From positions 466,869 through 530,868 of the forward strand of contig OZ242288.1 in NCBI GenBank assembly GCA_965207575.1: a DNA stretch of 64,000 bases. The letters run 5' to 3'. Both the position numbers and the translations under genes were made by a program. The DNA comes from an uncultured Candidatus Binatia bacterium. GTDB taxonomy: Bacteria; Desulfobacterota; Binatia; Bin18. This document shows positions 16,281 through 18,656 of the stretch, in pieces; positions within the stretch are counted from its first letter, which is position 1, and the number at the start of each line of letters is the position of its first letter. The notes under the pieces are model-generated. The model saw only the letters and a list, made by a program, of their open reading frames with translations. It did no database searches and had not been told where the DNA came from.

Positions 16281-18656
16281 ATGATACCGGATGCAGGCAG
16301 GAGGGCGTTGAGCATGGGGCGATCAATCTTCATTACCGTCGTGTTGCTGTTGCAATGGGCAGGGTTCTCCTCGGTACAAGCGCAACAGGATGGGGATATC
16401 CGGTTAGTGGGAGGCAGCCATTCCTACGAGGGGCGGGTGGAGATTTATCACAATGGGGTGTGGGGGACAGTGTGTGATGACAATTGGGACGATCAGAATG
16501 CGGAGGTGGTGTGTCGGCAGTTGGGCTATGGAGGGGGGACGAGCTATCAGCAGGCACGTTTTGGGCAAGGCACGGGACAGATTTGGCTGGACGACGTGCA
16601 GTGTAATGGGGATGAGACGAGGCTGGACGCGTGTCCGGATAATGCGTGGGGCTTCCATAATTGTGACCATGCTGAGGATGCGGGGGTGGGGTGTGATCCT
16701 CCGGTGGGTGTGAACCACGCCCCGGTGTTCAGCACGGGGGCGGCGCAGAGTGTGGCCGAGAACCGGCGGGGGGTGGTCACCCTGGCGGCGAGTGATGCCG
16801 ATGGGGATTCCATGACCTTCACAATCAGTGGGGGCGTAGACGCGGGGCAGTTTGCGGTGGATGGAGCCCGGCTGGAATTTGCTGTGGCCCCGGACTTTGA
16901 GACGCCGCTGGACGCAGACGATCCGGCCACGGTGGGGACGAACGAAGCGGGGGACAATATCTATCAGGTGACGGTGATGGCGTCGGACGGTCGGGGGGGG
17001 ACCGCCACGCTGGCGTTGCGGGTCACGGTGACCGATGAGACCGAGCCTGCGCCCCCCACGGCCCTGCGGGTCACGGCGGGCAACACGCGGCTGACCCTGC
17101 GCTGGACCGCGCCGTCGGGCACGGTGACTGGCTACGACGTGCACTACAAGACCACTGCCGCCGCCGACCAACAGGCCCCGTCCCCCACGGACCCGACCAC
17201 GGGCTGGGTCGCCGCCACCCGCAGCGGCACGACCCCGTCCCAGACGATTACCGGCCTGACCAATGGCACGGCCTATGCCGTGCGGGTGCGTGCGAAGAAC
17301 GCCGACGGTACTGGCGTGTGGGCCACGGGCCAGGGCACACCTAGTGGCGGCGGTGGTGGTGGTGGTGGTGGCGGTGGCGGTGGCGGTGGCGGTGGCGGTG
17401 GTGGCGGGGCCGCCGTGCGGGACCCCCATGGCAACACGCCGGGCCGAGCCACCGACATCCCCTTGTCCCCCACTGCGCGTACGCCCGCCGTCCGGGGGCA
17501 CCTCGTGTCGGGTAATGACGTGGACTACTTCCGCCTGGACTTGCCCTGGCCGGGGCTCCTGTGGGCGGAGAGCCGGAGCGGGCTCAACACCCGCGGGCGG
17601 CTCTTTGATGCCGATACCACCCTGCTGCTCAGTGACGACAGCAGCGGTCCCCGCCAGAACTTCCGGCTCGGCACCGCCGTCACAAAAGGCGTACACTATA
17701 TCGCCGTGGACAGTCCGCGCGGGGCCACCGGGGCGTACACCCTGGCGGTGGACTACCGGCCGGGGTTTGCCGAGATTCCGTGGGCGGACTCGACCCAGAG
17801 CGGCATTGGCGTCATCTCGGGCTGGGTGTGCGAAGCCGCCGAAGTCGTGTTGGAGATTGAGGCCGCGGACGGGAGCGTGGTCACATCTGAAGCCGGGGCG
17901 GGCACCGAACGGCTGGATACCCAAGCCGCATGTGGGCACCCGGACAGCGGGTATGGGCTGTTGTCCAACTGGAACAGCTTGGGGGCGGGCTCCTACACCG
18001 TGCGGGGGGTGGTGGATGGGGTGGTCCTGGATGAACAGGCTATCACCGTCGTGCCCCTCGGTGCCGAGCCCTTCGTGCGGGGGCTCAGCGGGACGTATGC
18101 CTTAGCCGACTTTCCCCAAGTGGGCGAGACGACGCAGGTCGTGTGGAGTGAAGCGCAGCAGGGGTTTGTGATCGGCACCGGGGCCATTCCCCCTAATCCG
18201 GACGACACGGCAGGGGACCCCACCCGCTACGTGTTGGAGAACCCCGGGTCGGGCACCTATCAGAGTGGGATCGGGGTGCTGTCGGGCTGGGTGTGCGAAG
18301 CGGAGGTCATTGAACTCGTCATCACGCCCGAGGCGGGCGAAGCCGTCCGGCTGGAAGCGGCGTATGGGACGGAGCGGCTAGACACCCAAGGGGTGTGTGG
18401 GGATGAGGACAATGGGTTTGGGGTGCTGTTCAACTGGAACAATCTGGGGGCGGGGGTGTACGTGGTGGAGTTGCTGGTGGATGGCGAGGCGGTGGGGCAG
18501 AGTACGGCGCGGGTGACGACGTTGGACGACTCCACGCCGTTCGTGCGGGGGCTGCGCGGGACCTATCCCTTGGAGGGGTTTCCCAGTCCAGAGCAGACGA
18601 CGACGATTGAGTGGCAACAACAGCGCCAGAACTTTGGTATTGTCGGGGTGGGGTGA
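16281..18656 (+). CDS. Secreted mosaic protein: SRCR, cadherin-like, FN3, poly-Gly linker, PPC domain and two copies of the LENP/SGWxCEA module
   Basis: The signal peptide probably starts at M12 (16314). The SRCR domain (16395-16697) reads IRLVGGSHSYEGRVEIYHNGVWGTVCDDNWDDQNAEVVCRQLGYG ... IWLDDVQCNGDETRLDACP ... HNCDHAEDAGVGC. The cadherin-like region (about 16713-17045) reads NHAPVF ... LAASDADGD ... YQVTVMASDG ... VTVTDE. FN3 spans about 17046-17345 and the PPC domain has DVDYFRLDL ... GAYTLAVDY. Confidence 0.9.
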   Translation: MIPDAGRRALSMGRSIFITVVLLLQWAGFSSVQAQQDGDIRLVGGSHSYEGRVEIYHNGVWGTVCDDNWDDQNAEVVCRQLGYGGGTSYQQARFGQGTGQIWLDDVQCNGDETRLDACPDNAWGFHNCDHAEDAGVGCDPPVGVNHAPVFSTGAAQSVAENRRGVVTLAASDADGDSMTFTISGGVDAGQFAVDGARLEFAVAPDFETPLDADDPATVGTNEAGDNIYQVTVMASDGRGGTATLALRVTVTDETEPAPPTALRVTAGNTRLTLRWTAPSGTVTGYDVHYKTTAAADQQAPSPTDPTTGWVAATRSGTTPSQTITGLTNGTAYAVRVRAKNADGTGVWATGQGTPSGGGGGGGGGGGGGGGGGGGGGAAVRDPHGNTPGRATDIPLSPTARTPAVRGHLVSGNDVDYFRLDLPWPGLLWAESRSGLNTRGRLFDADTTLLLSDDSSGPRQNFRLGTAVTKGVHYIAVDSPRGATGAYTLAVDYRPGFAEIPWADSTQSGIGVISGWVCEAAEVVLEIEAADGSVVTSEAGAGTERLDTQAACGHPDSGYGLLSNWNSLGAGSYTVRGVVDGVVLDEQAITVVPLGAEPFVRGLSGTYALADFPQVGETTQVVWSEAQQGFVIGTGAIPPNPDDTAGDPTRYVLENPGSGTYQSGIGVLSGWVCEAEVIELVITPEAGEAVRLEAAYGTERLDTQGVCGDEDNGFGVLFNWNNLGAGVYVVELLVDGEAVGQSTARVTTLDDSTPFVRGLRGTYPLEGFPSPEQTTTIEWQQQRQNFGIVGVG
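17346..17408 (+). repeat. (GGY)21 trinucleotide microsatellite encoding Gly21
   Basis: 21 consecutive GGC/GGT/GGG codons, read directly from the sequence. Confidence 0.95.

Follow-up and report, generated by a model that had tools for sequence, protein, structure and literature searches.

Sponges distinguish bacteria that serve as food from those that live in them as symbionts, and the expanded scavenger-receptor cysteine-rich (SRCR) receptors of sponges are a prime candidate for doing so. SRCR genes have undergone a huge expansion in sponges and sea urchins, and their domains fall into two classes: group A, with six cysteines (three disulfides), and group B, with eight (PMC10855680). In DMBT1, mutagenesis has tied residues D1019, D1020, D1058, D1059, N1081 and E1086 to cation-dependent ligand binding (PMC7043408). 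On the bacterial side, the eukaryote-like proteins (ELPs) of sponge symbionts comprise the ANK, LRR, fn3, cadherin, TPR, NHL, PD40 and Calx-beta classes (PMC9531527 and references therein). SRCR is missing from the classes in that study, and our literature searches found it discussed solely as a host receptor. Two further described systems are relevant here. The first is that of the PPC/collagen-binding domains of clostridial and Bacillus collagenases (ColG s3a/s3b, ColH s3, 5sv5), and the second is that of C-terminal sorting domains, such as PEP-CTERM or the T9SS C-terminal domain of the Bacteroidota, the latter a conserved Ig-like domain in which many secreted multidomain proteins of unrelated kinds terminate.

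We describe here a bacterial gene that can be compared with all these systems. The window, that is, the whole 64-kb stretch of DNA that was analysed, carries at 16281..18656 (+) an ORF of 791 aa, present as the initial annotation described it, whose product is a predicted secreted mosaic protein according to the ORF list, the domain searches, the profile and the model. Its parts follow one another in the order signal peptide, SRCR, Big_9 Ig, FN3, Gly21, PPC fold and two Ig-like modules. Two other ORFs, at 16404-17939 (-) and 17263-18105 (+), lie wholly within this gene, which has strong domain matches, and we therefore rejected them as high-GC artefacts. Our main reading, to which we assign a probability of roughly 60%, is that the protein is a Sec-exported, extracytoplasmic and modular eukaryote-like adhesin or decoy, encoded by a real Binatia gene that was built from three shuffled blocks. 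Observed here are which domains there are, their mosaic arrangement, the size of the family, the taxonomic setting and the retained binding residues; the export route, the ligands and the adhesion or decoy role are what we infer.

The predicted Sec signal peptide (16281..16382, +; residues 1-34, read from the sequence) contains the basic residues R7, R8 and R14, then the hydrophobic stretch SIFITVVLLLQWAGF, then VQA and QQ. An alternative start, M12 (16314), is preceded by an AGGAGG 8 nt upstream; a scan for promoters and terminators near the gene gave no informative signals. The SRCR domain follows at 16395..16697 (+), with the 6-Cys group-A pattern and matches to PF00530 and to SRCR domains in the PDB. 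PF00530 aligns with residues 43-138 over positions 1-99 of its 100, with an E value of 9e-34 and 116.2 bits against a cutoff of 26.1; for the domain that the initial annotation had read from the consensus, the score is over four times what Pfam requires, and the model is covered along its full length. Matches to individual SRCR domains from animal proteins of known structure have E values of 1e-28 to 1e-36. The six cysteines are C65, C78, C108, C118, C128 and C138, and the positions specific to group B are occupied by Y48 and Y83. Going by the SRCR consensus of DMBT1, we take D66, D67, D104, D105, N127 and E132 to be the counterparts of DMBT1 D1019, D1020, D1058, D1059, N1081 and E1086, respectively. 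All six are retained, as judged from the motif spacing in PMC7043408 and from alignments to CD163. In comparison to the metazoan SRCR proteins (DMBT1/SALSA, MARCO, Mac-2BP, CD163), the window protein thus has in common a full-length group-A 6-Cys domain, identical cation-site residues and an identity that reaches 66% (hemichordate/echinoderm). It differs from them in being bacterial, in carrying one SRCR where they carry tandem arrays, and in the absence of CUB, ZP, collagenous and transmembrane parts, its SRCR being fused to an Ig domain of bacterial type, to a PPC fold and to two unannotated modules.

The closest relative of this head is P0010, a protein encoded on a 2.78 Mb contig (ENA ERZ25068633), which consists of four SRCR + Big_9 units followed by RCC1-like repeats. 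The N-termini of the two proteins are alignable, with similar signal peptides; their SRCR domains are 65-70% identical, the three Ig repeats of P0010 share 71-73% identity with the Big_9 domain of the window protein, and at the DNA level the block made of signal peptide, SRCR and Big_9 is 72% identical in both. P0010, on the other hand, has no FN3, no Gly run and no cassette of PPC and modules; RCC1/WD40-like repeats form its end. Many genes with LRR, Spond_N and matrixin domains surround it. The homology search with the full-length protein was dominated by metazoan multi-SRCR proteins, and P0010 was its sole useful match. In the JGI metagenomes, the scan with the SRCR-Ig-FN3 head found no close orthologues, the best matches being partial segments at 29-53% identity, and a search with Big_9 only for bacterial SRCR+Ig proteins returned one short, uninformative match.

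The likeness of the SRCR to animal domains raises the question of its origin. Horizontal acquisition from an animal is plausible. A stronger version, in which the SRCR block was recently captured from animal DNA (of a host or of prey) and grafted onto a bacterial chassis, is a rival that we judge less probable than its contrary. With hemichordate and echinoderm DMBT1-like 6-Cys SRCRs, the window SRCR shares 62-66% identity, which is nearly as much as with P0010, and it lies much nearer to those animal domains than to the remaining bacterial SRCRs in the cassette family. The latter have lower phmmer scores against it, and their identity to the metazoan domain that each matches best is 38-54%. 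The expansion of SRCR genes in sponges and sea urchins also speaks for such a capture. We built a bootstrapped neighbour-joining (NJ) tree from 109 SRCR domains; its metazoan members were chosen for their likeness to the query, and no sponge is among them. In this tree, the window SRCR is nested among ambulacrarian sequences, and the bacterial SRCRs are monophyletic in 0 of 100 replicates. The phylogeny suggested by the initial annotation gave the ambulacrarian nesting but no node support (18/100 for the window SRCR with P0010, 7-39 for the nearest mixed clades); since the tree lacks this support, we claim neither a donor nor a direction of transfer. Composition argues against a recent event, because the SRCR segment (GC 0.58, GC3 0.63) is close to the housekeeping genes of the window (GC3 0.66-0.75) and bears no compositional foreign mark. 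So does the mutual identity of the bacterial SRCRs, which at 36-59% points to a long bacterial residence or to several transfers.

The GC rises from 0.58 in the SRCR to 0.68-0.73 in the two domains that come next, and is 0.64-0.73 over the remainder of the gene. The first of these domains (16713..17027, +) is a bacterial cadherin-like Ig domain: over residues 145-249, Big_9 (PF17963) passes its threshold (26.6 bits vs 23.6), whereas the Cadherin model (PF00028) reaches 15 bits, below its threshold of 28.8. What had been called a cadherin-type repeat is thus retained as a cadherin-like Ig and not as a cadherin proper. The FN3 domain (17052..17321, +) was correctly recognised, PF00041 matching residues 258-347 at 49.5 bits vs 25. 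Its closest relative, at 69% identity, is found in a Binatia locus (L013), directly upstream of the cassette of that locus. The Gly21 linker, (GGY)21 in DNA terms, has exactly 21 glycines at residues 356-376 (17346..17408, +), as claimed, and forms the 5' breakpoint of the homology to the paralogues.

The segment after the linker (17409..17762, +) is a PPC/collagen-binding-domain-like beta-sandwich, as seen from the profile, the AF2 model and Foldseek. On the window sequence, the Pfam PPC model (PF04151) gives no match at E<=0.1 with the whole protein or at E<=0.01 with residues 375-495 alone. A family profile of the segment, by contrast, matches the ColG collagen-binding domains nearly end to end (5iku at E 4e-6; 1nqd, 1nqj and 4hpk at about 0.015), and the AF2 model (pLDDT 91, pTM 0.85) superposes with TM 0.71-0.80 on the pre-peptidase C-terminal domain of a B. 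anthracis collagenase (5sv5) and on ColG/ColH collagen-binding domains (1nqd, 3jqw). The PPC assignment of the initial annotation accordingly holds for the fold and the profile and fails for the Pfam model. PliG and the C-terminal domain of the C. perfringens enterotoxin superpose on the model comparably well, and the identity to solved collagen-binding domains is 16-20%; at this level, the modelled fold suggests that the domain may bind collagen. The window protein also differs from the collagenases in having no peptidase. This is the reason why we rejected a peptidase pro-form, a reading that comes from the name "pre-peptidase C-terminal domain", although the paralogue L004 does have a matrixin head. 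Of 81 loci of the family, 60 have a PPC domain upstream of their modules, and Pfam PPC scores somewhere along the protein in 2 of 52 members (best E 4e-18).

The two copies of a new module that had been noticed are indeed there, at residues of about 495-634 and 649-791, with a mutual identity of ~49%. Module 1 (17763..18182, +) has an Ig-like beta-sandwich core with C517 and C551 and then an extension of ~45 aa; module 2 (18225..18653, +) has C672 and C706 and reaches the C-terminus of the protein. Neither matches Pfam, NCBIfam or PDB sequences, including in a search of the PDB with a module profile. The model of the pair is of moderate quality (pLDDT 72, with low-confidence inter-domain parts), and a fold search with it returned generic tandem-Ig matches alone, at TM about 0.2, with no functional homologue. 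The C-terminus, ...QNFGIVGVG, does not combine a transmembrane segment with a basic tail. The conserved cysteine pairs and the predicted signal peptide would be compatible with an extracytoplasmic location. Single modules also occur in two neighbouring genes for predicted secreted proteins. One, of 276 aa (14034..14864, +), has its module right behind the signal peptide (in blastp it matches module copies of the SRCR protein at E 4e-25 and 1e-19; also seen by tblastn); the other, of 410 aa (21095..22327, -), has an N-terminal module (tblastn, 43% over 138 aa) followed by ~250 aa that are unmatched, with no Pfam match.

Linker, PPC and two modules travel together as a cassette. It is about 78% identical in DNA to the paralogues L003-L006, the homology beginning at the Gly run: its start is at 17345-17346 for L005, L006 and L008, and at 17360-17391 for L002, L003, L004 and L007. 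The heads of L003-L006 are LRR+Calx-beta, Peptidase_M10+Calx-beta or Spond_N+GSDH. The SRCR gene is therefore a mosaic of three shuffled blocks: A (signal peptide, SRCR and Big_9), B (FN3) and C (Gly linker, PPC and two modules). Among representatives of clusters at 50% identity, 2,911 match the cassette family at E<=1e-3, a number that falls to 1,406 at E<=1e-30, and there are dozens of copies per Binatia genome. The passenger domains of the family, whose repertoire was surveyed in 52 representatives, include LRR, FN3, cadherin, Calx-beta, Spondin_N, matrixin and SRCR, joined to the cassette by flexible Gly/Pro linkers. Of the 145 best representatives, 10 have an SRCR (8 Pfam-confirmed), and the same kind of architecture, SRCR with FN3, cadherin or Calx-beta and the same C-terminal cassette, is seen in at least ten independent cluster representatives. 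By its sequence distribution, the cassette is a large family with no Pfam or NCBIfam model that serves as a common C-terminal chassis for interchangeable heads; we did not find it described in our literature searches. The relation to known sponge-symbiont ELPs is visible here, as these too are secreted proteins with repeat or adhesion domains of animal type; Binatia are known from sponge microbiomes, and the FN3, cadherin-like, LRR and Calx-beta domains are partners in the cassette family.

The position of the cassette admits another explanation, namely that PPC and the two modules are mainly a C-terminal secretion or surface sorting-anchoring domain, following a T9SS-like logic, rather than a host-binding unit. 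In 129 of the 145 best representatives, no more than 10 aa follow the cassette, whose last residues (...QNFVITxVE) are conserved; it is linked flexibly to unrelated passengers, and its Ig-like beta-sandwich fold is shared with the T9SS C-terminal domains. We nevertheless consider this explanation unlikely. All these proteins have predicted N-terminal Sec signals as well, the NCBIfam/Pfam sorting-domain models do not match residues 495-791, and, contrary to the T9SS domain, the cassette is a tandem pair plus PPC whose modules can be N-terminal, as in the two neighbouring genes. A version with no passenger is moreover found in an Acidimicrobiia MAG (2.65 Mb contig), presumably from a monoderm, which argues against a pathway specific to the outer membrane. 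Beside the cassette genes, a 218-aa ORF alone recurs, at 2 loci, and there is hence no candidate partner or secretion gene. The same observations weigh on any role of the cassette as an anchor, since the module is not always C-terminal; the existence of the pair alone in an actinobacterial MAG means that the "chassis" may be the binding unit itself.

The genomic setting of the gene is bacterial. Its flanking genes encode a TonB-dependent receptor, a MoCo dehydrogenase and R-M enzymes; on both sides of its region, at 1.4-12.4 kb and 34.6-38.9 kb of the window, the DNA is 88-93% identical to Candidatus Binatia chromosomes, and the window DNA shares ~90% identity with Binatia chromosomes as well as with a MAG derived from Ircinia. 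Scanning the full window for Rfam families and for tRNAs found nothing. The assembly chimera that the initial annotation had envisaged, or else a eukaryotic contaminant joined to bacterial DNA, has a very small probability: one may cite for it the GC step after the SRCR, the exact look-up of the protein in a public protein collection, which gave no record, and the head with no close orthologue in JGI metagenomes, but the gene is a single unbroken ORF between bacterial genes with flanks syntenic with complete Binatia chromosomes, P0010 carries the same signal peptide+SRCR+Big_9 unit on an independent contig, and the at least ten representatives mentioned above fuse SRCR to the same cassette. 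The SRCR mosaic is a real bacterial gene, from a Candidatus Binatia close to sponge-associated MAGs.

Binatia MAGs are where most of the cassette family is found, and one of those bearing it, "jk18x40bins.50", follows the naming scheme of the study of Caribbean Ircinia sponge MAGs, in which 14 Binatia MAGs were recovered (PMC9531527). The cassette is also present in Candidatus Poriferisodalis. As its relatives include Ircinia MAGs, the view of a eukaryote-like protein from a sponge symbiont, suggested from the sequence at first, gains support, and a sponge is the putative host of the window bacterium.

We can then consider how the proposed adhesin or decoy might function. Through its conserved di-cation site, the SRCR head would bind repetitive polyanions (host matrix, glycans or microbial surfaces) in a Ca2+-dependent manner, like the SRCRs of animals. 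A flexible stalk would be provided by the Ig and FN3 domains together with the Gly21 linker, while the cassette would tether the protein to a common target, either the collagenous matrix of the host or the bacterium's own surface. The bacterium could in this way adhere to its host, or mimic the SRCR pattern-recognition receptors that the host itself has. Against this stand the lack of a functional homologue for the modules and, for the tether to collagen, a fold similarity at low identity that PliG and the enterotoxin domain match as well. On a broader and more speculative level, the cassette might be a "display chassis" that symbionts of sponges and corals share across phyla, with recombination at low-complexity linkers exchanging the animal-type recognition domains (SRCR, LRR, Spondin, cadherin, FN3) that it carries, and the SRCR members might be decoys or competitors of the host SRCR receptors, helping the symbiont to be tolerated rather than eaten; we hold this extension to be improbable as it stands, if worth stating.

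Sponge symbiosis is among the oldest animal-microbe symbioses, and a predicted secreted protein of a putative symbiont, with a host-type receptor domain whose ligand-site residues are intact, is a concrete and testable candidate for molecular mimicry. The cassette links scattered classes of eukaryote-like proteins into one modular system and suggests that they diversify by shuffling at Gly/Pro linkers, and a domain model for it would improve the annotation of symbiont genomes.

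The 791-aa ORF at 16281-18656 (+) is present in the window exactly as the initial annotation had it, and all the elements then named for it were found: an SRCR domain, a cadherin-type repeat, an FN3 domain, a run of 21 glycines, a PPC domain and two copies of a new module. The SRCR domain is well above its HMM threshold, as the Pfam model PF00530 aligns to residues 43-138 over model positions 1-99 of 100 (116.2 bits for a curated cutoff of 26.1, E 9e-34). The following repeat had been called cadherin-type; a domain does exist at residues 145-249, but the Pfam Cadherin model falls below threshold there (15 bits for 28.8), and the better name is that of a Big_9 Ig domain (26.6 bits for a cutoff of 23.6). 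Next come an fn3 domain (residues 258-347, 49.5 bits in Pfam) and the glycine run (residues 356-376, 17346-17408), which is exactly 21 residues long and encoded as (GGY)21. The N-terminus shows a basic stretch, a hydrophobic core and VQA followed by QQ, so that the protein is probably exported by Sec. Exact look-up did not find the 791-aa protein in the public protein collection. Two other ORFs lie inside the gene, at 16404-17939 (-) (511 aa) and 17263-18105 (+) (280 aa); the first is read from the opposite strand and the second from a different frame. Both have the Arg/Pro/Gly-rich composition usual for shadow ORFs in high-GC DNA and are unlikely to be genes.

The C-terminal part of the protein is a cassette made of the linker, a PPC-like segment and the two modules. 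The PPC-like segment (residues 377-494) was undetected by Pfam, both in the whole protein and alone, and its assignment comes from a family profile and an AlphaFold model. The profile, built from 23 family members, matches ColG collagen-binding domains almost end to end (5iku at E 4e-6; 1nqd, 1nqj and 4hpk at about 0.015), and the confident model (pLDDT 91, pTM 0.85) superposes with a TM in the range of 0.71-0.80 on 5sv5, the pre-peptidase C-terminal domain of a B. anthracis collagenase, and on ColG/ColH collagen-binding domains. The two modules (residues about 495-634 and 649-791) share ~49% identity and have no match in Pfam, NCBIfam or PDB sequences. The AlphaFold model of the pair is of moderate quality overall (pLDDT 72), with two well predicted cores (blocks at 80-94). 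Each core is a beta-sandwich of seven or eight strands, and behind it comes an extension of about 45 aa that is predicted with less confidence. The Foldseek hits were limited to tandem-Ig proteins of a generic kind (KIR, LILR, SiiE, S-layer domains; E about 1e-4, TM about 0.2). Each module carries two invariant cysteines and the conserved motifs SGIGV.SGW.C, GTER.DT, CGD.DNGFG and NWN, which fits an extracytoplasmic, disulfide-bonded domain.

This cassette defines a large family. A two-module search gave at least 493 homologues, and Pfam annotates the modules in none of them. In species-representative genomes, scanning confirmed 436 matches, the great majority from Candidatus Binatia MAGs, which carry many copies per genome (OY761159.2 alone accounts for about 20 of the best 80). 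Matches also come from one Thermodesulfobacteriota MAG, from a Candidatus Poriferisodalis contig (Actinomycetota) of 2.65 Mb, and from Acidimicrobiia and Latescibacterota 'Plut_' MAGs, where the contigs are short. When 1.84 billion cluster representatives were searched exhaustively with a profile, 2,911 scored at E<=1e-3, 2,230 of them at E<=1e-10 and 1,406 at E<=1e-30. The best 145 have a median length of 1,043 aa; in 129 of them no more than 10 aa follow the module pair, and 76 contain a PPC-like segment. For complete module-bearing ORFs in the genome loci that were fetched, the median is 1,041 aa, with 19 further ORFs extending past the 5 kb flank. The domains ahead of the cassette, in a sample of 52 representatives, are LRR (16), fn3 (10), Cadherin-like (4), Calx-beta (4), Cadherin (3), GSDH, SRCR, He_PIG and PPC (2 each), with single cases of Spond_N, LDL-receptor class B, FGE-sulfatase, arylsulfotransferase and PD40. 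An SRCR domain is found in 10 of the best 145; eight of these were scanned with Pfam, and all eight score above the SRCR threshold, at 63-94 bits, and combine the domain with fn3, Cadherin or Calx-beta. The architecture is thus recurrent and not a one-off, which argues against the assembly chimera that the initial annotation had considered at this gene.

The way in which heads and cassettes are combined points to an origin of the SRCR gene by domain shuffling within a large paralogous family. The four closest loci (L003-L006, 75-78% protein identity) share the Gly/Pro linker, PPC-like segment and two modules under entirely different heads: LRR and 7 Calx-beta in L003 (1806 aa), Peptidase_M10 and Calx-beta in L004 (1513 aa), and Spond_N and GSDH in L005 and L006 (about 1132 aa). 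DNA homology with them begins at 17345-17391, at the Gly run, and stops at the stop codon; these breakpoints suggest that low-complexity linkers served as junctions. The signal peptide, SRCR and Big_9, together with 13 nt upstream (16268-17047), are 72% identical in DNA to the gene of P0010, a protein with four SRCR+Big_9 units followed by RCC1-like repeats, encoded on a 2.78 Mb ENA contig near LRR, Spond_N and matrixin genes, and the FN3 domain is closest (69%) to the one immediately upstream of the cassette at another locus, L013. The linker itself differs among paralogues, being Pro33-Gly8 in L003 (about 4450-4650) and Gly runs broken by PT in L005 and L006 (about 4520-4650), a variation compatible with slippage-prone or recombinogenic junctions.

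Two observations concern the surroundings of cassette genes. Immediately downstream of the SRCR gene, a 218-aa secreted protein without Pfam match (18784-19440 (-)) is 73-78% identical to the products of genes at L005 1529-2110 and L006 1531-2113, just upstream of the Spond_N+GSDH cassette genes of two Binatia chromosomes. P0121, the nearest of the stand-alone cassette proteins (69% identical), is encoded in L002 (1-17455; ENA ERZ23491399, KELL22-1 scaffold_1466), next to a Spond_N+GSDH+Calx-beta gene, and this pair is flanked by conjugation genes (TrbI, VirB11-like ATPase, TraG-type coupling protein, relaxase, MobC). Cassette genes may travel on a conjugative element, and this could explain their cross-phylum distribution.

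The SRCR head has six cysteines, at 65, 78, 108, 118, 128 and 138, which by sequence is the three-disulfide pattern of group A (as defined in PMC10855680). The two extra group-B positions are tyrosines. Against animal proteins of solved structure, the window domain matches single SRCR domains at E 1e-28 to 1e-36. The cation-site motifs are spaced as DDxWDxxD, LDDV and NCxHxE, and the corresponding residues (D66, D67, D104, D105, N127, E132) are all identical to those of DMBT1, whose numbering was placed on the window domain through what we take to be the DMBT1 SRCR consensus. This placement agrees with CD163 alignments and with the residue list of the DMBT1/SALSA structure paper (PMC7043408), in which site 2 is formed by D1019, D1020 and E1086 and site 3 by D1020, D1058, D1059 and N1081, their mutation abolishes ligand binding, and conservation of the sites across the SRCR fold is argued for.

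As for its origin, the window SRCR is nearest to the four domains of P0010 (65-70%), followed at 57-66% by 6-Cys SRCRs of Ptychodera, Diadema and Acanthaster and 8-Cys SRCRs of Holothuria. The other bacterial SRCRs of the family are far more divergent, at 38-54% to their best metazoan domain and, except for one near-identical pair, 36-59% to one another. In a neighbor-joining tree of 109 domains (100 bootstraps; a metazoan sample biased towards the query and without sponges), the window domain and P0010 were placed among hemichordate and holothurian sequences without support (18/100 for the pair), no node was supported, and bacterial monophyly was recovered in 0/100 bootstraps. GC3 gives no compositional sign of recent import: it is 0.63 in the SRCR segment, near the 0.66-0.75 of the window's housekeeping genes, and 0.79-0.87 elsewhere in the gene. 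Given the huge metazoan repertoire (PMC10855680) and the patchy bacterial one, we infer acquisition from animals as the more economical reading; such transfer may be old, or may have happened repeatedly. Multi-SRCR proteins of 1,000-1,330 aa, single ORFs on short metagenome contigs (P0095, P0102 and P0109 on JGI contigs of 5.6-6 kb, P0107 from Logan), could be bacterial or intron-less eukaryotic fragments.

The window itself is clearly bacterial, with a TonB-dependent receptor (34034-36745), a molybdopterin dehydrogenase (10311-12680), an aldehyde dehydrogenase, an amidase, a CoA-transferase and several restriction-modification enzymes. The latter are dense over the 64 kb: a complete MmeI-type enzyme with all five MmeI domains (36946-39744 (+)), a Type ISP enzyme (51394-54462 (-)) and two further DNA methyltransferases (8466-9413 (+), 23292-24635 (-)). 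Long ORFs without Pfam match (E<=0.001) lie at 45633-47564 (-) (643 aa), 39816-40967 (+) (383 aa) and 22476-23249 (-) (257 aa). Stretches of 1.2-2.4 kb are 88-93% identical in DNA to the Candidatus Binatia chromosomes OY763426.1 and OZ246888.1 and to the MAG jk18x40bins.50, whose "jk18x...bins" name follows the scheme of a Caribbean Ircinia sponge study that recovered 14 Binatia MAGs (PMC9531527). By this sequence identity, the source is a close relative of sponge-associated Binatia; sponge association is also described for Binatota in PMC9999580.

Sponge symbionts are well known to encode eukaryote-like proteins with domains such as LRR, fn3, cadherin and Calx-beta, and the Ircinia study reported enrichment of such proteins (PMC9531527). 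SRCR appears in the literature searched only as a host receptor and not as a symbiont-encoded domain, and neither Pfam (2025 copy) nor NCBIfam (2026 release) has a model for the cassette; the window protein is therefore a eukaryote-like protein with an unusual head, from a modular family that is large, lacks annotation and is defined by the cassette at the C-terminus.

What would such a protein do? That the cassette is mainly a sorting or anchoring device seems less likely. A single module stands directly behind the signal peptide in two other window genes (14034-14864 and 21095-22327), and an actinobacterial MAG carries, on a large contig, a linker and two-module gene without passenger, both of which speak against a pure sorting signal. 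We favor, with a probability of roughly 60%, a secreted adhesin or decoy that binds through its SRCR head on a shared binding chassis. Once exported by Sec, the head, with its intact cation site, would be expected to bind repetitive anionic ligands in a Ca2+-dependent manner, by analogy with DMBT1, MARCO and CD163 (PMC7043408). Big_9, FN3 and Gly21 would form a flexible stalk, and the PPC/collagen-binding-type domain with the two modules a common attachment, for which the sponge collagenous matrix is an attractive candidate target; the PPC fold is also common to the claudin-binding enterotoxin domain and PliG, so its ligand is not fixed to collagen. In a sponge, the SRCR protein could either fasten the bacterium to the matrix or act as a mimic or competitor of the host's own SRCR receptors.
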